Shown here piece after piece: positions 4,803 to 23,277 of a stretch of 37,974 nt of DNA; position 1 is the stretch's first letter; each line of letters starts with the position of its first letter. Below the pieces are notes generated by a model. That model was given only the letters and a program-made list of their open reading frames with translations, was not told the origin of the DNA and did not search any database. The DNA is taken from the IMG/VR virus record IMGVR_UViG_2548877011_000015. The stretch is one strand, 5' to 3'. Source of the stretch: a virus (taxonomy: Duplodnaviria > Heunggongvirae > Uroviricota > Caudoviricetes). The position numbers and the translations under genes are program-made.

Positions 4803-5624
4803 ATGCACCACGGAATTCATCATTTCCATGGGACGCCTGTCTGGGGAAGTGCTGGCGACGTTCATCGTATTGCGGTGAGCGGAGCTGGCGCTTTCGTCTC
4901 CTATGTACGGCCAGATCAGATTGCGGCGTCCATTCAGCACGCTCAGGTCGTCGGCATTGATAACGGCGCATTTTCTGCATGGGTGCGTGGGCTAAAAATT
5001 AACTGGAGTGATTTTTATAAATGGCTCCTGAACTATTACCACCATCCTAAGGTCGCTTTTTTTGTCATTCCTGATGTTGTGGACGGAGGTGAACGTGACA
5101 ATGATGCCCTGATAAACGAAGTTCCGAAAATGTTCTACGGGAAGGCAACTCCCGTCTGGCATCTGCACGAGTCAATCGATCGGCTTATCGAGCTATGTCG
5201 TGAATGGCCTCGTGTCTGCTTTGGATCTTCTGGTGAATATGCGGCTATCAGAACTGCGCACTGGCATCGTCGTATGCAGGACGCTTTTGAAGCAATTTAT
5301 TGCCGACACAATTTCAAAACAGCTGTTCATGGTTTGCGCATGCTTGACGGTCGTGTGTTGGGAAATTACCCACTGGCGACTGCCGACAGTACAAATCTTG
5401 CCTGCAATGTCCCCAAATTTAATAGCAAATATCCTGAGCTGACGCGGGCTATTCAGGAGGCTGAGTATTCGCGCAATCTGACGGAAAAGGAGCTGAAAGC
5501 TGTCATTCTGAAAAACCGTTGCGCAATTTTAAAAGGTGCAATTGAAGCTGTTCGCCCACCTTCAGTTTCTGATTGGCTGTCGAATGGTTTGCAGCCTTCA
5601 CAGCTCGAACTGGAGATTGCGTAA
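4803..5624 (+). CDS. conserved early-region protein of unknown function (273 aa)
   Basis: ORF track 4794..5624 (GTG 4794 or ATG 4803); sits between dam and replication gene A; no motif confidently recognised (loose DxGxF / GSSG resemblance only). Confidence 0.5.
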
Positions 5625-7996
5625 TGAACTACAGCTATTCCTGGAATGCTGAGAAAAAAGCAATCAATCCTTACGTAGAGACAGAAGAGCAATCTTCAGT
5701 TTCTGCGCTTTCAAACCTGATCGCTCTGTACGCTGCCGATAACGAGCAGGAACAGCTGCGCCGCGAGGCACTGAGTGATCAGGTCTGGGAGCGTTATTTC
5801 TTTAATGAATCCCGTGATCCTGTCCAGCGCGAAATGGAGCAGGATAAGCTCATTAGTCGGGCAAAGCTGGCGCATGAGCAGCAGCGTTTTAATCCAGATA
5901 TGGTCATTCTGGCGGACGTCAATGCCCAGCCTTCCCATATCAGCAAGCCGCTGATGCAACGTATTGAATACTTCAGCAGCCTGGGCAGGCCAAAGGCTTA
6001 TTCCCGCTATTTGCGTGAGACGATTAAGCCATGTCTGGAACGGCTGGAGCATGTACGCGACTGTCAGCTATCCACTTCTTTTCGCTTTATGGCAAGCCAT
6101 GAAGGGCTGGACGGCCTGCTGATCCTGCCTGAAATGAGTCAGGATCAGGTGAAACGCCTGTCCACCCTGGTAGCTGCGCATATGAGCATGTGCCTTGATG
6201 CAGCTTGTGGCGATTTGTATGTCACCGATGACGTTAAGCCAGAAGAAATCCGCAAAACATGGGAAAAGGTGGCAGCGGAAACCCTGCATCTGGATGTCAT
6301 CCCGCCTGCGTTTGAGCAACTCCGCCGGAAAAGAAACCGCCGTAAACCCGTGCCCTATGAACTCATTCCGGGTTCGCTGGCGCGTATGTTGTGCGCTGAC
6401 TGGTGGTACCGGAAATTATGGAAGATGCGTTGCGAATGGCGGGAAGAGCAGTTGCGTGCTGTCTGCCTGGTCAGCAAAAAAGCATCTCCCTATGTCAGCT
6501 ATGAAGCCGTGATGCATAAACGTGAGCAGCGCCGTAAGTCGCTGGAGTTTTTTCGTTCTCATGAACTGGTGAACGAAGACGGCGACACGCTGGACATGGA
6601 GGATGTGGTAAACGCCAGCAGCAGCAACCCTGCGCATCGCCGCAATGAGATGATGGCCTGTGTTAAAGGCCTGGAGCTTATCGCGGAAATGCGCGGTGAC
6701 TGCGCCGTTTTCTACACCATCACCTGTCCGTCACGTTTCCATTCCACGCTAAATAATGGCAGGCCCAACCCAACTTGGACAAATGCGACGGTAAGACAAA
6801 GCAGTGATTATCTGGTCGGCATGTTTGCTGCATTTCGTAAGGCGATGCACAAAGCCGGATTGCGGTGGTATGGCGTGCGGGTGGCTGAGCCGCATCATGA
6901 CGGTACAGTTCACTGGCACCTGTTGTGTTTTATGCGCAAAAAAGACCGCCGCGCCATCACTGCATTACTGCGTAAGTTTGCCATCCGTGAAGACCGCGAG
7001 GAACTGGGCAATAACACTGGGCCGCGCTTTAAGTCTGAGTTGATTAACCCGCGCAAAGGTACGCCAACAAGCTACATCGCGAAATACATCAGTAAGAACA
7101 TTGACGGGCGTGGTCTGGCTGGCGAGATCAGCAAGGAAACGGGGAAATCCCTGCGTGATAATGCTGAATACGTTAATGCCTGGGCGTCTCTGCATCGTGT
7201 TCAGCAATTCCGCTTCTTTGGCATTCCGGGGCGTCAGGCTTACCGTGAACTGCGATTGCTGGCTGGTCAGGCGGCAAGGCAACAGGGGGACAAAAAAGCA
7301 GGTGCGCGGGTACTGGATAACCCGCGCCTTGATGCCATCCTGGCTGCTGCTGATGCTGGTTGTTTTGCTACCTACATCATGAAGCAGGGCGGCGTACTGG
7401 TTCCCCGCAAATATCACCTCATCAGAACCGCTTATGAAATCAACGAAGAGCCGACCGCCTATGGCGATCACGGCATTCGTATTTATGGCATCTGGTCACC
7501 TATTGCAGAGGGCAAGATCTGCACTCATGCCGTGAAGTGGAAAATGGTTCGTAAGGCCGTTGATGTTCAGGAGGCGGCAGCCGACCAGGGCGCTTGCGCC
7601 CCTTGGACTCGTGGCAATAACTGTCCCCTTGCTGAAAATTTGAACCAACAGGAGAAAGATAAATCAGCTGATGGGGACCCCAGAACGGACATTACCAGCA
7701 TGGATGACAAGGAGTTGCACGATTACCTGCACAGTATGAACAAAAAAGAGCGCCGGGAACTGGCTGCAAGGGTACGCCTGGTGAAACCGAAACGGCGTAA
7801 AGACTACAAACAGCAAATTACAGACCATCAGAGACTGCAGCTCGTCTATGAGCTGAAGTCCAGAGGATTTGATGGTAGCGAGAAAGAGGTCGATTTACTC
7901 CTTCGCGGCGGCAGTATTCCGTCAGGAGCAGGCCTGCGTATCTTCTATCGGAACCAGCGTTTGCAAGAAGATGATCAGTGGCGGAACCTGTATTAA
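5624..7996 (+). CDS. A: replication initiation protein A (rolling-circle nickase, P2 gpA-like)
   Basis: 790 aa from ATG at 5624 (TAATG overlap with upstream gene); size and position of P2/186 gene A; contains the paired-tyrosine region YIAKYISK. Confidence 0.85.
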
Positions 7997-8149: not shown

Positions 8150-8338
8150 ATGCAGGACTATTTTTTGGAGTCTTTGAAGCTCCAGCGCATTGATTTTTTT
8201 CTTAAGCTTGTAGCGGCTAGTGAGTGTAGTGATGAAGAGAAGGGGCTGGCTCTGCAGTGGGTTTCTGAATTGACTGATGAACTCATGGCAAAAATCAGAA
8301 CCCACGAATACAACCGCTCAATGGATGTCATCAGCTGA
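8150..8338 (+). CDS. Tum-like SOS-inducible protein, N-terminal ORF (62 aa)
   Basis: ATG at 8150 with AGGAGGA SD; directly downstream of the LexA box, in the position of 186 tum. Confidence 0.45.
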   Translation: MQDYFLESLKLQRIDFFLKLVAASECSDEEKGLALQWVSELTDELMAKIRTHEYNRSMDVIS

Positions 8339-8348
8339 GGTGACTTTT

Positions 8349-8582
8349 ATGCGCATTGAAATAATGATCGATAAAGAGCAGAAGATTAGCCAGTCTACCC
8401 TGGACGCCCTTGAATCCGAGCTTTACCGCAATCTGCGCCCCCTGTATCCCAAAACGGTAATTCGTATCCGTAAAGGTAGCTCTAACGGTGTGGAACTGAC
8501 CGGACTGCAACTGGATGAAGAAAGAAAACAAGTGATGAAAATTATGCAGAAGGTGTGGGAAGACGACAGCTGGCTGCATTAA
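8349..8582 (+). CDS. DinI-family protein
   Basis: 77 aa MRIEIMIDKEQKISQSTLDALESELYRNLRPLYPKTVIRIRKGSSNGVELTGL...WEDDSWL is collinear with E. coli DinI (MRIEV...); GAGGTG SD upstream. Confidence 0.8.
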   Translation: MRIEIMIDKEQKISQSTLDALESELYRNLRPLYPKTVIRIRKGSSNGVELTGLQLDEERKQVMKIMQKVWEDDSWLH

Positions 8583-8590
8583 GAAACGTT

Positions 8591-8620
8591 GCCCCCAAGA
8601 GGATTTATCCTGTTGGGGGG
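8591..8620 (+). terminator. stem-loop after DinI-like gene (terminator candidate)
   Basis: gcccccaagaggat tt atcctgttggggg imperfect palindrome immediately after the stop, followed by a weak T stretch (agtttggg). Confidence 0.4.
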
Positions 8621-9070
8621 AGTTTGGGCAACGAGTGAAATGAGGTGTAAGGTGGGCGGTCATTTTGATAAGTGATCGTCCACTTTGTGTCAGAACCTGA
8701 TGTTTGTTGTACATTCGGACGAATAGGCGGCGTTGTTTGCTTTAAAAATAAAACAGGAACACTTTGAGAAAGTGAACAGGTGTATTTATTTGTTGCTGAT
8801 GAATGAGAGTAACTCTAATTTGGATAATTAGCTTGATAATAGGTCAGACGAAAATAATATTCCAGCACACTTTTGGTCGCAACAGGCATTAGTTAATTTT
8901 AAGTGATAAATTTTTATCCATAAATTAACACTAGTGTGTCATCTAGCGAAACCGAATCGCTTTAACTCATAACTTGAAGTTGAATCAGTGGGGTAGCAGT
9001 AGGCATGCCGGAACTGATAAACTGTGCAGAAGGCTAAACATTCATTCACTCGTGAGATAGTAGCTAAATT

Positions 9071-9937
9071 ATGCAAAGAATTATTCCTGATAAAAATTGG
9101 TGGGAAAAAGAGCGTATTAATCGTAAAGCATCATCAATATGCCCATATGCTAGTTCATACAGATGTCCTCGATACTATCAGAGTGTAGTTTTGCTCTCAA
9201 GCATCAATGTGATAGCTGGTATGGCAACTAGGAAAGAAAAAGAGTTGGGTGAATTTTGGGAAAGAACCACTTTCTCATCTTTATGTGATGAAGAAGTCCC
9301 TACAGTTACTACAAAAGAATATGGCGGCCTTGCATCAGTTAGTAATTTTTGCCCAGAAATATCATTTAGATATTTACACTACTACGCCGATTATATGTGT
9401 AAATATGTTGATGAGATAGATCAGGACACTGGCAGGCGTATTGCGGAAAAAGATAATTTAGAAAATGATTGGAAATATACATGGATGTCAGTCAATCCTA
9501 AATTTTATTTAGATTGCGATGTTTTTGAAAGTGTCAAAAATTTCAATGAAGAATTGGCTAGTGATTACTTAAAAAGATTGCACCCAAATATCGTTCAGCA
9601 AATAGATAGAATGAATAATTGCTTGGATAATAATGATCCGGCAGGTGCACTGCACGCAGCCTCTAATATTTTAGAAACTATGGCTAAGGAAATCACTCAA
9701 AACCCGAATGTGGCAAATGAGTCATTGGGTGGTTTTTTTAAACAGTTCGAAAAAATGTCAAAATTACCTAAGAATCTTATTGATGCTGTTAAAGATATTT
9801 ATGATTTACGCAACAAATTACCTACTGCTGGACACGGAAGCTTGAACAAGCCTGAATTGACTATGGTAGAAGCTATAACTATTGCGGCAATGACAAAGGC
9901 GATTTTAGAAATTGAATATCGAAGCAAAGCCATCTAA
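9071..9937 (+). CDS. hypothetical protein (288 aa), accessory island; possible Abi-like
   Basis: ATG at 9071; low-GC; N-terminal Cys cluster CPYASSYRCPRYY; C-terminal LRNKLPTAGHGS (R-N...G-H-G) reminiscent of Abi_C/HEPN-type motifs; occupies the P2 tin/old hotspot between the replication module and cos. Confidence 0.5.
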   Translation: MQRIIPDKNWWEKERINRKASSICPYASSYRCPRYYQSVVLLSSINVIAGMATRKEKELGEFWERTTFSSLCDEEVPTVTTKEYGGLASVSNFCPEISFRYLHYYADYMCKYVDEIDQDTGRRIAEKDNLENDWKYTWMSVNPKFYLDCDVFESVKNFNEELASDYLKRLHPNIVQQIDRMNNCLDNNDPAGALHAASNILETMAKEITQNPNVANESLGGFFKQFEKMSKLPKNLIDAVKDIYDLRNKLPTAGHGSLNKPELTMVEAITIAAMTKAILEIEYRSKAI

Positions 9938-10064
9938 CAAACCAAATTATGTGGTTCAAATTCCCGCTACACTTCTGTGTTGCCGCCAGCGTCTACTTAT
10001 CGCTGTGAGTTCAACGGGTGATGATGCGTTAGAGATCTCTGAATCGATTGAAGTCTAAGGTTGT

Positions 10065-10086
10065 CAGGGCTGTAACAGCAGCCCTG
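10065..10086. terminator. perfect 8-bp stem hairpin between convergent genes
   Basis: cagggctg taacag cagccctg between the 3' ends of the 9071..9937 (+) and 10187..10840 (-) genes. Confidence 0.35.
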
Positions 10087-10186
10087 TGTCATGAATGGAT
10101 TGCATATTAATTGACGAAGAACAGACTAATATCATCGATAGCTGTTTTCAAAAATAGACCAATAACAAACTGAGATGTTATCGTAT

Positions 10187-10840
10187 TCATTTCGATGATT
10201 GATCCAGATGTGTATATAACCATTGAAAGAGTTTTCTAATTTTTGTGATAGTATCTTTTAAATAATTTAAGGAGATTATTATATTATTTTCATTGTTTAA
10301 TGAAAGAGTAGGTGTTTTATCAATGATATTTTTTAAGGCTACAGCTGTGCTCATTTTTTTAATGTCTCCATTAGCATGAACTATGCAATTCCTTACTTTG
10401 TTAAACTCTGTCATGAATTGCCACTCTTGTGACAGGCCAAAGTTTATATCCATTAATTTTGTTAAATATCTTTTTGCTTTGTGGATGCCATCACCATTAA
10501 AATCGGTTACTGATATATTGGTGTTTACAATCCTTTGACATATATTGCAATAGTCGTTTAGGTTGTGCTCTAAGCATGAGTATAAAGATACCAAAGCAGA
10601 TTTATTAAAAATATTTGGTTGTATGTTAACTAAGAAATCATATTGCTCTGAATAATAGTCTTCTAAGTAATTAATATAATCGTCAGGAGCATTCTTTTTT
10701 TCATCTTCATATGCTTTTTTTAATTCCGCTAAGTCAACTCTGTTTTGGCCGCCTGCTCCTAGGATATATTTTTCGAAATCATCAATCTGCGCTTCAAGTG
10801 AATATCTTGATAGCTGTGCGAAAAGTTTGTATTTACTCAT
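10187..10840 (-). CDS. hypothetical protein (217 aa) with HEPN-like Rx4H motif
   Basis: ATG at 10838-10840; low-GC; VRNCIVHANG matches the R-x4-H HEPN signature near the C-terminal third; accessory hotspot location. Confidence 0.5.
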   Translation of the reverse strand: MSKYKLFAQLSRYSLEAQIDDFEKYILGAGGQNRVDLAELKKAYEDEKKNAPDDYINYLEDYYSEQYDFLVNIQPNIFNKSALVSLYSCLEHNLNDYCNICQRIVNTNISVTDFNGDGIHKAKRYLTKLMDINFGLSQEWQFMTEFNKVRNCIVHANGDIKKMSTAVALKNIIDKTPTLSLNNENNIIISLNYLKDTITKIRKLFQWLYTHLDQSSK

Positions 10841-11183
10841 CGGTATGCCATTCCTTTTTAATTATAAACCTTTGGATTAAAAGGTGCTGAAAATAGTAAC
10901 TCATTATTTTTGTTTGTAAAGGGGGTATTGTTTTTACTAGATCAAGATAAAACAATGGGAATATCCGCTTTTCGCTCACAGCGGACTTTCATCTTTGTAA
11001 ACCCGTATGATTAGCTTTTCAGCGGTCATTCAGATACGGATTTACGCTTCCCTTGGCTGTGCATGACTATGACGCATGAGATCGCATGATCGTTAGAGGA
11101 TCGTTTTTGCTGAGGCCAGCCAGAACTGGCGTGCTTTTGCTTATGTCGTGCAGGTGCATGAAAACCACTACATAAAGCGGGCA

Positions 11184-11202
11184 GGCGTGGCGGGGATACG
11201 AT
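11184..11202. other. cos-like cohesive-end site
   Basis: ggcgtggcggggatacgat followed by tgcgcgct, compared with the P2 left end GGCGAGGCGGGGAAAGCAC TGCGCGCT as recalled from memory; sits in a GC-normal segment (about 10960-11220) between two AT-rich islands. Confidence 0.5.
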
Positions 11203-11270
11203 TGCGCGCTAGGTATAAGTGTGTAAAATAATTCCAAAATAAATCATCCTAATGAAGTGAGAGGGTAATA

Positions 11271-12920
11271 ATGTTAGTCAAGAAAAATAAAAATTATAGT
11301 TTATATTTTTTAATTACAAATAATCAACAGATATCTGATTCTGGTAATTATATAAAAATAGTCCCATCAAGAAGCGATTGGAATGATTTTGGATATTTGA
11401 GTAGAGTCGAAATATCTATTTTTAATAAAAAAGAGTGTAAGGATATAATTTCACTGAATGGTTATATTGGTTTTTTGAATTCAGAGGAGGAACGAAATGG
11501 AAAAGCAGAACTGATAAGGCGAGTGAAGAAAAAGGAAGAATCTAATTTAAAGGATGAGGGGTTTAATGATTATTTTGTCATGCTTCAGGATATGAATAAT
11601 TATCGAAGACTAGTAAGATTTTTTGGGGTGAATGAATCCAAATATATATTAAATTTCATTAATGATGTTGTTTCTAAGAAAAGTGACGCTAGTGCAGAGA
11701 ATTTGAGGAAAAAAGCAATCTCTTCTGATATCTTTAATAAATCTTTCATTAGAGAGTCTGAGTCGTATTTTACTTTCAAAAATGCAGGAACAGTTCTTTC
11801 CGGTATTCAATATGAGGAGTTGGGTAATTTATCACAGCACATCAAGATTAGCTATTCGAATAAAGTTAATGAAGAAGATGTATCTTATGTTTTTAATTTT
11901 GATCACGAGCATGATTTACCAAAAAGAATTTCCATAATTATAGGCGAGAATGGTGTAGGAAAAAGCCAAACGCTTAGAGAAATCGCATTGGCTGCGATTA
12001 AAGGAAAGGATAATTTGGTGGCTGTAGTTGATTCTAACGGTGTGAGCATTGAAGAACGAATTCAAATTAGTAGGCTCATTGCTTTTTCTCCAACAAATGA
12101 AAGTAAGTGTTCATTTCCAACCGATAAAAGAATAAAATCATTGATATGGTACAAAAGATTGACTTTAAATCGTGAATCAAAATCCAAATTAAACTTGAAT
12201 GATTTAATAGTGCAACTAGCGAGGAGTAACGACGCTATCGGCTATAATCAAAGGTGGAATATATTTGTTGATGCACTGAGTGTTCTAAATAGTAACAACG
12301 ATTTAGTAATCAAATGTAGCGGTGAAAATTCACCATTTGTTAAATTAAATGAGCTTAATTCTCGAGGCGAAGAATCCAGACTATCATTATATTCTGAAAT
12401 TATTCTCTCTGGCGAGCCTTTGAGGCTTGTTGAAAATAAATGTTACCCTTTGAGTAGTGGGGAAATATCGTTTATTAAGTTTTGTGTACAAGTCTGTTTG
12501 TATATTGAGAATGGGACTCTTCTATTAATAGATGAGCCAGAAACACATCTCCATCCTTCATTTATTAATAAATTTATGGCATTGCTTGATAATTTATTAG
12601 AAAAGACAGGCTCTTCAGCTATCATAGCAACGCATTCGGTTTATCTTGTTCGGGAGGTTTTTAAGGAGCAAGTGACAATACTCAGAAGACGAGATGATGG
12701 GGTAATTGTTAGCGAAAAACCGAGATTGAGTACTTTTGGGGCGAATATAGGAAATATCTCATATTTTGTTTTCGGTGAGAGTGAACCAACTCAAATTTTA
12801 AATAAAGTAAAAAATAATATAATTGCAAAGAATATGTCTTGGGATGATGTTGAATCTAAATATAGCGAGGACTTATCACTTAATGTATTAACTGCGTTGA
12901 GAAATGAAATAGGTAATTGA
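11271..12920 (+). CDS. ABC/SMC-like ATPase with N-terminal extension (Septu PtuA-like)
   Basis: 549 aa; Walker A GENGVGKS (~aa 225), Walker B LLLIDEPETHLHP (~aa 417), H-loop ATHS; ~215-aa N-terminal domain of unknown type; GAGGGT SD; low-GC; stop is 1 nt before the next gene's start. Confidence 0.7.
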   Translation: MLVKKNKNYSLYFLITNNQQISDSGNYIKIVPSRSDWNDFGYLSRVEISIFNKKECKDIISLNGYIGFLNSEEERNGKAELIRRVKKKEESNLKDEGFNDYFVMLQDMNNYRRLVRFFGVNESKYILNFINDVVSKKSDASAENLRKKAISSDIFNKSFIRESESYFTFKNAGTVLSGIQYEELGNLSQHIKISYSNKVNEEDVSYVFNFDHEHDLPKRISIIIGENGVGKSQTLREIALAAIKGKDNLVAVVDSNGVSIEERIQISRLIAFSPTNESKCSFPTDKRIKSLIWYKRLTLNRESKSKLNLNDLIVQLARSNDAIGYNQRWNIFVDALSVLNSNNDLVIKCSGENSPFVKLNELNSRGEESRLSLYSEIILSGEPLRLVENKCYPLSSGEISFIKFCVQVCLYIENGTLLLIDEPETHLHPSFINKFMALLDNLLEKTGSSAIIATHSVYLVREVFKEQVTILRRRDDGVIVSEKPRLSTFGANIGNISYFVFGESEPTQILNKVKNNIIAKNMSWDDVESKYSEDLSLNVLTALRNEIGN

Positions 12921-12921
12921 A

Positions 12922-13785
12922 ATGAATAAATTAAAAAGACCTGTTTTTAAAGATTATTCTGCATTTAAAAAACTATCTGCAAATAAGAGATTAAAACATC
13001 ATTCTGTTCTGAATGGACAGGATACATTTATACTTAATGCATATAGATCGTACATAAAGAATAAAGGATATCTTAATGTCAATTCTTGTGGCGTATTGAG
13101 TAACAATATTGCTGAAGCTTTGAAATATTATTATAACAATCCCGCAAAGTGTTTATCTATAATTGATGATATAAGAGCAGCTAATTCTAACTCTCTATGT
13201 CCAATGTGTGGTTCAATGCATAGCGGGACTTTGGATCATGTTTTACCCAAGGAAAACTATCCAGAATTTTCTTTATTCACTAAGAATTTGGTTCCTGCTT
13301 GCAAATGTAATACTTTCAAAAGTACTACTATAGCTAATTCTGCAGGCCATCGGATGCTGCATCCATATTTTGATAATATATTAAAACAAAGATTAATATG
13401 TGCTAATTTTTCTAAATTAGGGCGAACACCTACAATTGATGTAAAAATCATAATTGACCCAATGTCACCAGAATATAACAATGTTAAGTATCATCTTGAT
13501 AATGTTGTTATCAAGAATAATATTAAGGGGTATTTGTCTGAACAATGGGAGTCGTTTTACTTATATCCTGAGCTTGTTATTAGAGGACTGAATAAGAGTC
13601 TTTCTACTTATAGCGATGTATATGAGTTGTTGACTCGCGAGTTGTTGCTGTTGGATGAAAAACATAAAGGTAAAAATAATTGGAATTCGGTTTTTGTAGC
13701 TGGGTTAATTCGACCTGATGTGATTAGGTGGATACTCTGTGAATTACATTTAGGTAACAGAAGTCCAGACGGTCGTCTCATATGA
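12922..13785 (+). CDS. HNH endonuclease (Septu PtuB-like)
   Basis: 287 aa; HNH core CPMCGSMHSGTLDHVLPKENYPEF...NLVPACKCN; tightly coupled to the upstream ATPase. Confidence 0.7.
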   Translation: MNKLKRPVFKDYSAFKKLSANKRLKHHSVLNGQDTFILNAYRSYIKNKGYLNVNSCGVLSNNIAEALKYYYNNPAKCLSIIDDIRAANSNSLCPMCGSMHSGTLDHVLPKENYPEFSLFTKNLVPACKCNTFKSTTIANSAGHRMLHPYFDNILKQRLICANFSKLGRTPTIDVKIIIDPMSPEYNNVKYHLDNVVIKNNIKGYLSEQWESFYLYPELVIRGLNKSLSTYSDVYELLTRELLLLDEKHKGKNNWNSVFVAGLIRPDVIRWILCELHLGNRSPDGRLI

Positions 13786-21807: not shown

Positions 21808-22201
21808 AGCGGTGCCTTATGTCCGCAATAACCCGGAAAAACTGCATCTGTTTGTGGATAACGGTTCGCTGGTTGCCACGGGGGCCAGCTCCATGTCGTG
21901 GGAGTACCGTTACACCCTGAACGCGGTGATTGAGGATTTCAGCGGCGACCAGAATCTGTTGATGGCCCCGGTTTTACTGTGGCTGAGGGATAACCAGCCC
22001 GTTGCCATCAATAACCCGGCGTTACGGGAAAAACAATTCACCTTTGAGGTGGATATTCTGCGCAACGATGTCTGTGATATCAGCTTGAACCTGCAACTGA
22101 CGGAACGTGTGCTGGTCAGCACTGACGGCAGTGTGTCGAGCGTTGAAGCTGTAGCGGAACCCGATGAACCTGAAGAAATGTGGACGGTGAAACGTGGCTG
22201 A
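21770..22201 (+). CDS. R: tail completion protein R (P2 gpR-like)
   Basis: GTG at 21770 with AGGAG 8 nt upstream; track ORF 21749..22201; P2 R position and size. Confidence 0.7.
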   Translation: MNKPQSLRHALNKAVPYVRNNPEKLHLFVDNGSLVATGASSMSWEYRYTLNAVIEDFSGDQNLLMAPVLLWLRDNQPVAINNPALREKQFTFEVDILRNDVCDISLNLQLTERVLVSTDGSVSSVEAVAEPDEPEEMWTVKRG

Positions 22202-22646
22202 ACTGCAGAAAGTGGACGACTGGCTGAGTGCCTTGCTGGCGAATCTGGAACCAGCCGCCAGAAGCCGCATGATGCGCCAGCTGGCGCAGGAACTGCGCCG
22301 GACACAGCAGCAGAATATCAGGATGCAGCGCAACCCTGACGGCAGCAGCTATGAACCGCGACGGGTAACAGCACGAAGTAAAAAAGGGCGCATCAAACGT
22401 CAGATGTTTGCAAAGCTGCGCACCACAAAATACCTGAAAACCGCCGCCAGCGCGGATTCTGCCAGCGTACAGTTTGAAGGTAAGGTGCAGCGCATTGCCC
22501 GCGTTCATCATTACGGCCTGCGCGATCGCGTCAGTCCAAAGGGGGGAGTCATTAAGTATCCATCCCGAAAATTGCTGGGTTTAAATGAACATACTGAAAA
22601 TGAAGTAAGAGATTTACTTTTAAAGTATTTTTTGATGAAAAATTAG
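22194..22646 (+). CDS. S: tail completion protein S (P2 gpS-like)
   Basis: 150 aa, GTG start overlapping R stop; C-terminal YPSRKLLG motif as I recall it from gpS-family proteins. Confidence 0.7.
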   Translation: MAELQKVDDWLSALLANLEPAARSRMMRQLAQELRRTQQQNIRMQRNPDGSSYEPRRVTARSKKGRIKRQMFAKLRTTKYLKTAASADSASVQFEGKVQRIARVHHYGLRDRVSPKGGVIKYPSRKLLGLNEHTENEVRDLLLKYFLMKN

Positions 22647-22651
22647 AATGT

Positions 22652-23182
22652 TTACGCACTTAATAAACTTAAATAACTTTTTATGCTTTGGCAAAAAGGG
22701 AAAAGGTCTATTTTAATTTTCCAGTTTTTTTTGTTTTGAACCCCAGAAGCAATAATAGAACCATCCCAATATTTTATTCCATTTTTGCCGGTCTTTTTTG
22801 TTAACTCAAAACTTAATGCGTGAATAATTTTATTGCAGCATTCGCGTATAGAACCTTTAACATGACCATCTATAACAAAAAGTATATTTTCATGTTCTTC
22901 AAATGCTTCTTTCTCAGGTGAGTAATCTGGGTTCCACTCATGTTCACTAGTGTCTTGGAGAATTCGTAGTTTTGTACAAAGGCTAATAAGATTGTTGCTA
23001 ATGGTATATTCCAACCATCCGTTGTACGATAACTCCTCCATTTCAAATTCAGTTACTATAGAATCATCATATACTTTCTGTGTGGAATATATACGCTGTA
23101 AATAAAATTCAGATGAACAGCATAATTGCTCAATTATTCTTGCGTGTTCTTCTATAGCGTAATAATCAATTGGATGGCTCAT
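22652..23182 (-). CDS. hypothetical protein (176 aa), moron at the P2 orf30 site
   Basis: Low-GC gene on the opposite strand, inserted between tail genes S and V; ATG at 23180-23182 with AAAGG SD (track ORF extends to 23221). Confidence 0.55.
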   Translation of the reverse strand: MSHPIDYYAIEEHARIIEQLCCSSEFYLQRIYSTQKVYDDSIVTEFEMEELSYNGWLEYTISNNLISLCTKLRILQDTSEHEWNPDYSPEKEAFEEHENILFVIDGHVKGSIRECCNKIIHALSFELTKKTGKNGIKYWDGSIIASGVQNKKNWKIKIDLFPFCQSIKSYLSLLSA

Positions 23183-23277
23183 TCTTTTACCTTTCTTCGA
23201 TTGGAATTGTATTTGTGTCATTTACCACACAAGGACGTATTGATGCCATAGATTCAAGGTCCGTGCAACCTAACCCT

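Follow-up and report, generated by a model that had tools for sequence, protein, structure and literature searches.

A stand-alone HEPN-superfamily gene beside the probable cos site of a P2-like Escherichia coli prophage, a candidate abortive-infection RNase

The window analysed here, the whole stretch of 37,974 nucleotides of IMG/VR record IMGVR_UViG_2548877011_000015, is a P2-like E. coli prophage that carries on its minus strand a gene for a 217-aa protein whose conserved residues and predicted fold point to the HEPN superfamily. On balance, and with only modest confidence, we consider it probable that this is a stand-alone HEPN-family protein, encoded as a single-gene accessory cassette in the P2-like cos-proximal hotspot and acting as an abortive-infection RNase. 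The features of the region are as follows.

9071-9937, plus strand: 288-aa gene (WP_032317446), predicted to encode an AbiJ/Abi_C-type HEPN C-terminal domain and an uncharacterised Cys-containing N-terminal region; part of an independent cassette, 8685-10170.
10065-10086, no strand assigned: perfect hairpin in the convergent spacer, with an 8-bp stem and a 6-nt loop (CAGGGCTG/CAGCCCTG), within the 288 cassette.
10107-10186, minus strand: 3' flank that moves with the solo 217 cassette, from blastn boundaries; the solo 288 cassette likewise ends with 10107-10170.
10187-10840, minus strand: 217-aa stand-alone HEPN-superfamily gene (WP_000049685), predicted to encode a metal-independent RNase.
10376-10393, minus strand: codons for R150-N151-C-I-V-H155, the predicted catalytic Rx4H, from conservation in relatives and position in a helix.
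10841-10965, minus strand: AT-rich 5' leader of 125 bp (GC 0.296) with a promoter-like TTTACA-16-TACTAT at 10920-10893, from a consensus scan.
About 10966-11217, no strand assigned: GC-normal conserved segment, the probable cos region of P2-like phages, with a cos-like core at 11184-11202.
11271-13785, plus strand: cargo across cos, consisting of a PtuA-like ABC ATPase (549 aa) and a PtuB-like HNH protein (287 aa), PADLOC PDC-M01A/B; context, outside the 217 unit.

The open reading frame at 10187-10840 is intact, begins with ATG and has the translation given in the preliminary description, which had called it a low-GC gene on the minus strand. Both points were borne out, with a GC content of 0.303 compared with 0.497 for the whole window and 0.526 for gpA, and the composition of the gene is foreign. 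Pairwise comparison with five homologues (61-81% identity) gave dN/dS values of 0.10-0.20, which indicates that purifying selection acts on it; together with the intact reading frame and a RefSeq CDS, this establishes that the gene is real. The gene is also rare, being found in 9 of 5,426 complete E. coli genomes and missing at about 99% of matching E. coli loci, which places it outside the conserved P2 core. The part of the window that was queried, 8600-11300 (2.7 kb), is 100% identical to two E. coli chromosomes.

The gene order in this part of the window runs from the gpA replication endonuclease (5573-7996) through a small ORF, a DinI-like gene, the 288-aa gene, the 217-aa gene, the cos-like segment and the ATPase and HNH pair to the portal and terminase genes, which are on the other strand. 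The P2 literature places cos between gpA and gpQ, and a variable defence hotspot in which unrelated systems are routinely stacked has been described beside cos in this same interval (Rousset et al. 2022). The 217-aa gene lies between gpA and gpQ, by cos, and varies among lysogens, as cargo of that hotspot would. In Table S5 of Rousset 2022, WP_000049685 bears no label but “hypothetical” and is listed beside the neighbours it has here as well as in combination with different third cassettes; it is not among the systems cloned in that study, in which the clone called “Putative HEPN” (pFR103) carries a different protein.

The assignment of the adjacent segment to cos is probable rather than proven, because the canonical P2 19-mer has no match there within three mismatches. 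It rests on position and on alignment with the P4 cos region: the sequence AAAGCGGGCAGGCGTGGCGGGGATACGATTGCGCGC (core 11184-11202) parallels the P4 cos AAAGCGGGCGGGCGAGGCGGGGAAAGCACTGCGCGC of Rousset 2022 Table S2, with the flanks AAAGCGGGC and TGCGCGC identical and 14 of the 19 core positions identical. The segment from about 10966 to 11217 is matched in approximately 1,600 E. coli genomes and in P2-like phages, and these matches end sharply at about 11210-11217. The preliminary description had placed the 217-aa gene directly against a GC-normal cos region; a GC-normal, cos-like segment is indeed nearby, but the AT-rich leader intervenes between the two. This leader is conserved along with the gene in the solo copy from Enterobacter, which matches 10107-10986. 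The promoter-like element within it should be read with the result that promoter-like sites in the region are no more numerous than expected from shuffled sequence.

The motif VRNCIVHANG occupies residues 149-158 of the protein and contains its only Rx4H. An earlier caution that so short a motif might occur by chance was well placed for the motif alone, as shuffling of the 217-aa protein produced Rx4H in 10.7% of cases, Rx4-6H in 27.9% and RNx3H in 1.1%. Once conservation is counted, the Rx4H stands beyond chance. In an alignment of 66 family relatives, which share 21-35% identity with the window's 217-aa protein, just three columns, W140, R150 and H155, are invariant, and E91, N151 and G158 are at least 90% conserved, with N151 and E91 each present in 65 of the 66 relatives. 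Because these columns are invariant or conserved to at least 90%, the Rx4H, the polar asparagine after its arginine and the upstream acidic residue rank as the most conserved features of the family. Catalytic HEPN proteins are described as having an Rx4-6H motif, a polar N, D or H immediately after the arginine and a second acidic residue upstream in helix-2 (Anantharaman et al. 2013, PMC3710099). R150-N151-x3-H155 provides the first two of these features and E91, within a predicted helix at 53-105, provides the third. The Ex3[K/R] form around E91 is not kept, and position 95 is mostly N.

An AlphaFold2 model of the 217-aa protein built with 15 sequences (pLDDT 87, pTM 0.81) predicts N-terminal helices at 3-31 and 38-48, followed by the very long helix at 53-105 that bears E91, an insert at 106-137 and a helix at 138-156 with R150 and H155 at its C-terminal end. 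After this motif helix the model predicts a loop, a short helix, a beta-hairpin and a last helix at 191-215. The C-terminal end of a helix is the position given for the Rx4H of HEPN domains (Anantharaman et al. 2013, PMC3710099). A Foldseek comparison of the predicted fold with the PDB returned nothing under E = 0.67, and sequence searches of the PDB with both family profiles returned only noise (fusion glycoprotein, apolipoprotein E).

Profile searches against HEPN families gave matches to two models. The best match in any library was to PADLOC RTasHEPN, with E = 1.1e-5 for the window's 217-aa protein and 1e-10 to 1.5e-7 for its relatives, over model positions 55-146 of 148 (two-thirds). The Pfam model HEPN_RiboL-PSP (PF18735) matched 12 of the 66 relatives at E<=0.01 (best 3e-7) over the Rx4H region; it did not match the window's own protein at E<=1, and the individually inspected relatives scored 13.8-16.7 bits, below the gathering score of 28.4. 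Direct scans of the 217-aa protein against Pfam, NCBIfam and PHROG yielded no meaningful match and no significant HEPN model, and sub-threshold matches to Med15_fungi and FG-GAP were discarded as noise. UniRef names the identical protein RiboL-PSP-HEPN domain-containing. Under the preliminary description, the lack of a HEPN-like fold and an Rx4H that homologues do not keep would have counted against the HEPN reading; instead, the predicted fold and topology are HEPN-like, the arginine and histidine do not vary, and the profile matches are to HEPN models, all of which supports the HEPN assignment. From these profiles and this model, we conclude that the 217-aa protein belongs to the HEPN superfamily as a separate, unnamed family, sister of RiboL-PSP-HEPN and of the UG22 RT-associated HEPN.

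This family is large. An exhaustive HMMER search of 1.84 billion representatives retrieved 3,982 clusters at 50% identity with E<=1e-3, and 1,714 with E<=1e-10; the members are mostly 205-235 aa long, align end to end and extend from Enterobacterales to Bacillota, cyanobacteria and Planctomycetes. A word-indexed search with the 217-aa protein found only enterobacterial relatives and one Bacillus protein, and the same kind of search with a diverse profile recovered almost only close relatives that were already known. Locus scans with an alignment of the close family gave 8 + 6 + 19 loci, and a degenerate DNA pattern for W..I.....[IV]RN.IVH..G matched only 6 viral contigs.

Comparison with described HEPN systems places the family near several of them and inside none. 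RiboL-PSP-HEPN (PF18735) is the closest Pfam model over the Rx4H region and lends its name to the identical UniRef protein; it has a conserved Rx4-6H, occurs in operons with ParB-type (DUF262) nucleases and is distantly related to AbiD/AbiF (Anantharaman et al. 2013, PMC3710099). One 217 relative likewise adjoins a GmrSD/DUF262-HNH gene, whereas the window's protein is not fused to an L-PSP domain and has no ParB gene beside it. With the gathering score unreached, the family is not PF18735 by Pfam's own criterion and is better treated as a separate sister family. The UG22 RT-associated HEPN (PADLOC RTasHEPN, listed under DRT; Mestre et al. 2022, PMC9226505), although the best profile match, would act, if it acts at all, alongside a UG22 reverse transcriptase, and neither the window nor the enterobacterial contexts examined have an RT gene close to the 217 gene. 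The HEPN/MNT (HepT-MntA) type VII TA systems differ in that no MNT nucleotidyltransferase is adjacent in the window or at related loci, and in that the 217-aa protein exceeds them by about 80 residues and has a helical extension at its N terminus.

A close functional parallel is HepS of the Salmonella prophage Gifsy-1, a solo HEPN protein of 218 aa that is inactive by default, is triggered by a tail-tip protein and acts as an anticodon nuclease (Sargen et al., Nature 2026, PMC13043305). Like HepS, the 217-aa protein is a solo, single-gene prophage HEPN without a conserved partner. The two differ in sequence, with no homology between them: the 217 profiles gave no PDB match at E<=10 although HepS (9oik) was in the library, and the HepS motif lies at about R100/H105 rather than at R150/H155. 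Although it is predicted to act in the manner of the solo prophage HEPNs, the 217-aa protein is no HepS homologue. Its location in the hotspot and the example of HepS and other characterised prophage HEPNs that act alone make it reasonable to propose a role as an abortive-infection RNase.

A HEPN fold could also serve something other than defence, such as RNA processing or regulation for the element or the host, or binding without catalysis. Several HEPN families lack catalytic activity (Anantharaman et al. 2013, PMC3710099), and some distant 217 relatives are found in contexts that do not look defensive or mobile, either amid metabolic or cell-envelope genes (L052, with dehydrogenase and glycosyltransferase-like genes on either side) or with no evident defence or mobile genes nearby (L016, L018, L038). 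Non-catalytic HEPN families, however, lose the catalytic residues, which are invariant in the 217 family, and the enterobacterial members are all located in variable prophage or ICE cargo sites, where they are transcribed against the surrounding phage genes. With the absence of the gene from nearly all matching E. coli loci counted as well, we regard a non-defence role as very improbable for the window's protein, although it is conceivable for distant relatives in metabolic settings.

The neighbouring 288-aa gene at 9071-9937 also encodes a HEPN protein, of the AbiJ/Abi_C type. Its product has a weak Pfam Abi_C match, a relative with 97% identity carries PF14355, R247 and H255 are conserved with Rx7H spacing, and a jackhmmer search begun from a Bacillus AbiJ-like protein reaches it. 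Structure prediction was poor overall (pLDDT 59), and the C-terminal domain alone was used. The N-terminal 170 residues contain four invariant cysteines and no known domain. The protein resembles AbiJ in joining an Abi_C-type C-terminal HEPN to a separate N-terminal domain, which in AbiJ proteins has been proposed as a sensor (Anantharaman et al. 2013, PMC3710099); it differs in falling below the PADLOC AbiJ model, in having no Pfam AbiJ_NTD match and in its Rx7H spacing. Profile-profile comparison found no relationship between the 217 and 288 families.

As first described, the 217-aa and 288-aa genes are convergent across a spacer of about 250 bp that holds a perfect hairpin; the spacer, 9938-10186, measures 249 bp. 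Folded as RNA, the hairpin at 10065-10086 has a predicted energy of -20.6 kcal/mol (z = -2.9, plus strand). Its interpretation as a bidirectional or textbook intrinsic terminator was rejected, as there is no T-run on either strand and the hairpin belongs to the 288 cassette. The blastn boundaries delimit two cassettes, with locus L011 (solo 217) matching 10107-10986 and locus L003 (solo 288) matching 8685-10170. The 64-bp stretch at 10107-10170 is common to the ends of both; it could represent a recombination joint that the two share or a 3' element present in each, and no significant secondary structure was seen in it.

The preliminary description had raised the possibility that the 217-aa protein is one part of a two-component module with this neighbour, and the comparative evidence mostly does not support it. 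In a Morganella P2-like prophage, the 217 homologue is the sole insert between the sheath and tail-fibre-assembly genes (the Z/fun site); homologues in Salmonella diarizonae and Enterobacter lie beside lambdoid prophage tail-fibre genes, and the Pantoea homologue lies within an ICE. No 288-type neighbour was found at the Morganella, Salmonella, Enterobacter, Pantoea, P2-like S/V or Bacillus phage and plasmid loci, and intact homologues of 61-81% identity stand alone at no fewer than five other mobile-element sites. As homologues occur alone in other hotspots, a stand-alone cassette is the best reading, and because the solo Enterobacter copy matches 10107-10986, each of the two genes has cassette boundaries of its own.

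The alternative, in which the convergent genes for the 217-aa HEPN and the AbiJ-like HEPN of 288 aa make up a single two-gene system, with one protein sensing or restraining the other or both assembling into a hetero-oligomeric RNase, draws on several observations of linkage. Every one of the 9 complete E. coli genomes with the 217 gene carries the two genes together. The interval 8678-10978, which comprises both cassettes only (2.3 kb), is 97% identical to a metagenome contig with non-P2 flanks (DUF3800, T5orf172), and because those flanks are unrelated the pair must have moved as one block. An AbiJ/Abi_C gene also adjoins a 217-family gene in Bacillus toyonensis (L039/L050, 4136-5750), by an integrase gene and with a 44-bp gap on the same strand, and in Priestia megaterium (L017, 5716-7810); the gene orders differ, and the linkage in Bacillaceae is old, as both partners have diverged (47% and 31% identity between loci). 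In addition, the two solo 288 copies examined, both in E. coli lambdoid prophages, contain an in-frame stop, and in the six other matching records the gene is likewise annotated as a pair of CDSs.

These observations are set against independent occurrence in both directions. Four further Bacillaceae contexts of the 217 family (a phage and three plasmids) have no Abi_C neighbour, and the pairing is found in only about 3 of about 29 distinct contexts, the pattern of solo prophage cargo with no conserved partner. Eight E. coli genomes have lambdoid prophages in which the 288 cassette 8685-10170, gene and hairpin together, is unaccompanied by the 217 gene; the solo copies at L003 (5388-6254) and L061 (2887-3753) have replication genes on one side and a zeta-toxin gene on the other. 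In Salmonella, Pectobacterium and Serratia, intact homologues of the 288 gene (84-87% and 44% identity) lack a neighbour of the 217 family. The convergent genes downstream of the Pectobacterium and Serratia homologues, encoding 213 aa and 164 aa, were considered as hidden 217-family members and rejected, with no 217-family match for either and no significant Pfam match for the 213-aa protein. Moreover, the genes in the window are convergent, with separate flanks (8685-10170 and 10107-10986), their profiles are unrelated, AbiJ is a defence family of its own in PADLOC, and hotspots stack unrelated systems. We therefore consider a single two-gene system unlikely. [quoted passage not shown] We favour the reading in which the 217 gene is a self-contained single-gene cassette, stacked with others in the hotspot.

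Another two-HEPN neighbourhood in prophage cargo was observed in a Salmonella prophage (L053, 4181-4879), where a 288 homologue of 87% identity is preceded by a DUF4145 (HEPN family) protein, with a weak PADLOC PD-T7-4 match, and a GT4-conflict glycosyltransferase.

A single gene could also be the toxin of a TA or addiction module that stabilises the prophage, with the antitoxin provided by a small ORF, by a cis-encoded RNA as reported for C. difficile AbiF, or by the protein's own N-terminal part. In none of the contexts examined is the gene flanked by an MNT gene or by any other small gene that is conserved. The ToxI RNA antitoxin is a repeat array, and the interval 8300-11400 has no such array by Tandem Repeats Finder and no Rfam match at E<=1. 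In the Salmonella, Morganella and Pantoea copies the match is confined to the ORF and the flanks show no conservation, and in the window the 3' flank at 10107-10186 has no significant RNA structure (z = -0.8). A TA or addiction role is accordingly judged an improbable account of the gene.

For the favoured role, that of a solo abortive-infection protein, we infer RNase activity, oligomerisation, defence, trigger and substrate by analogy with the prophage HEPNs HepS and Tha, and a course of events can be proposed. The lysogen would make the 217-aa protein from the cassette's own promoter, for which the TTTACA-16-TACTAT element at 10920-10893 is a candidate, and the protein would rest as an inactive oligomer. 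A component of an infecting phage would then activate it, with the helical N-terminal portion (residues 1-105) as the probable route. In the active form, two protomers would join their R150/N151/H155 motifs and E91 into a metal-independent RNase site, and cleavage of tRNA, mRNA or rRNA at this site would stop translation and abort the infection.

Other cargo surrounds the gene and occupies further sites in the prophage. Across cos, the ATPase and HNH pair at 11271-13785 matches PADLOC PDC-M01A/B with E = 2.4e-55 and 8.2e-34, and Septu PtuA more weakly; in other lysogens that carry the 288 and 217 genes, the PDC-M01 cassette is swapped for a P-loop NTPase or other genes. HNH genes also adjoin 217-family members in five unrelated contexts (L010, 6956-7963; L015, 1392-2723; L017, 5068-5709; L062, 3107-3442; L063, 4186-5208), and one of the five is a GmrSD/DUF262-HNH fusion; this adjacency fits the ParB/DUF262 association described for RiboL-PSP-HEPN. 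Elsewhere in the window, a 189-aa ORF at 22652-23221 (minus strand, GC 32%) lies on the opposite strand between the tail genes S (22194-22646) and V, and it has no Pfam, PADLOC or PDB-sequence match. In a P2-like metagenome contig (L023), a 217 homologue of 70% identity is located at this same S/V junction. It therefore seems that P2-like phages have a third place for variable cargo here, in addition to the cos-proximal and Z/fun sites.

In the literature searched, we found no experimental data on any member of the 217 family and no name for one, and because no paper was found that names or tests it, the family can be regarded as newly recognised within the well-known HEPN kind. Among the models of Pfam, NCBIfam, PHROG and PADLOC there is none that gives this set of about 4,000 clusters (50% identity) a name as a whole, and the published catalogue of the P2 hotspot recorded its member here simply as a hypothetical protein. 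Single-protein HEPN Abi nucleases of prophages, such as HepS and Tha, the latter a HEPN of S. aureus prophages that is activated by tail protein, are topical because a single small protein combines detection of a phage component with the killing of translation. If the 217-aa protein is not protective, it is merely one more uncharacterised HEPN gene. If it is protective, the family would give defence-finding tools a widespread single-gene system, the compact protein of 217 aa would lend itself to the study of trigger recognition by a helical N-terminal extension, and its distribution would help to explain the cargo of three variable sites of P2-like phages, the cos-proximal site, Z/fun and the S/V junction.
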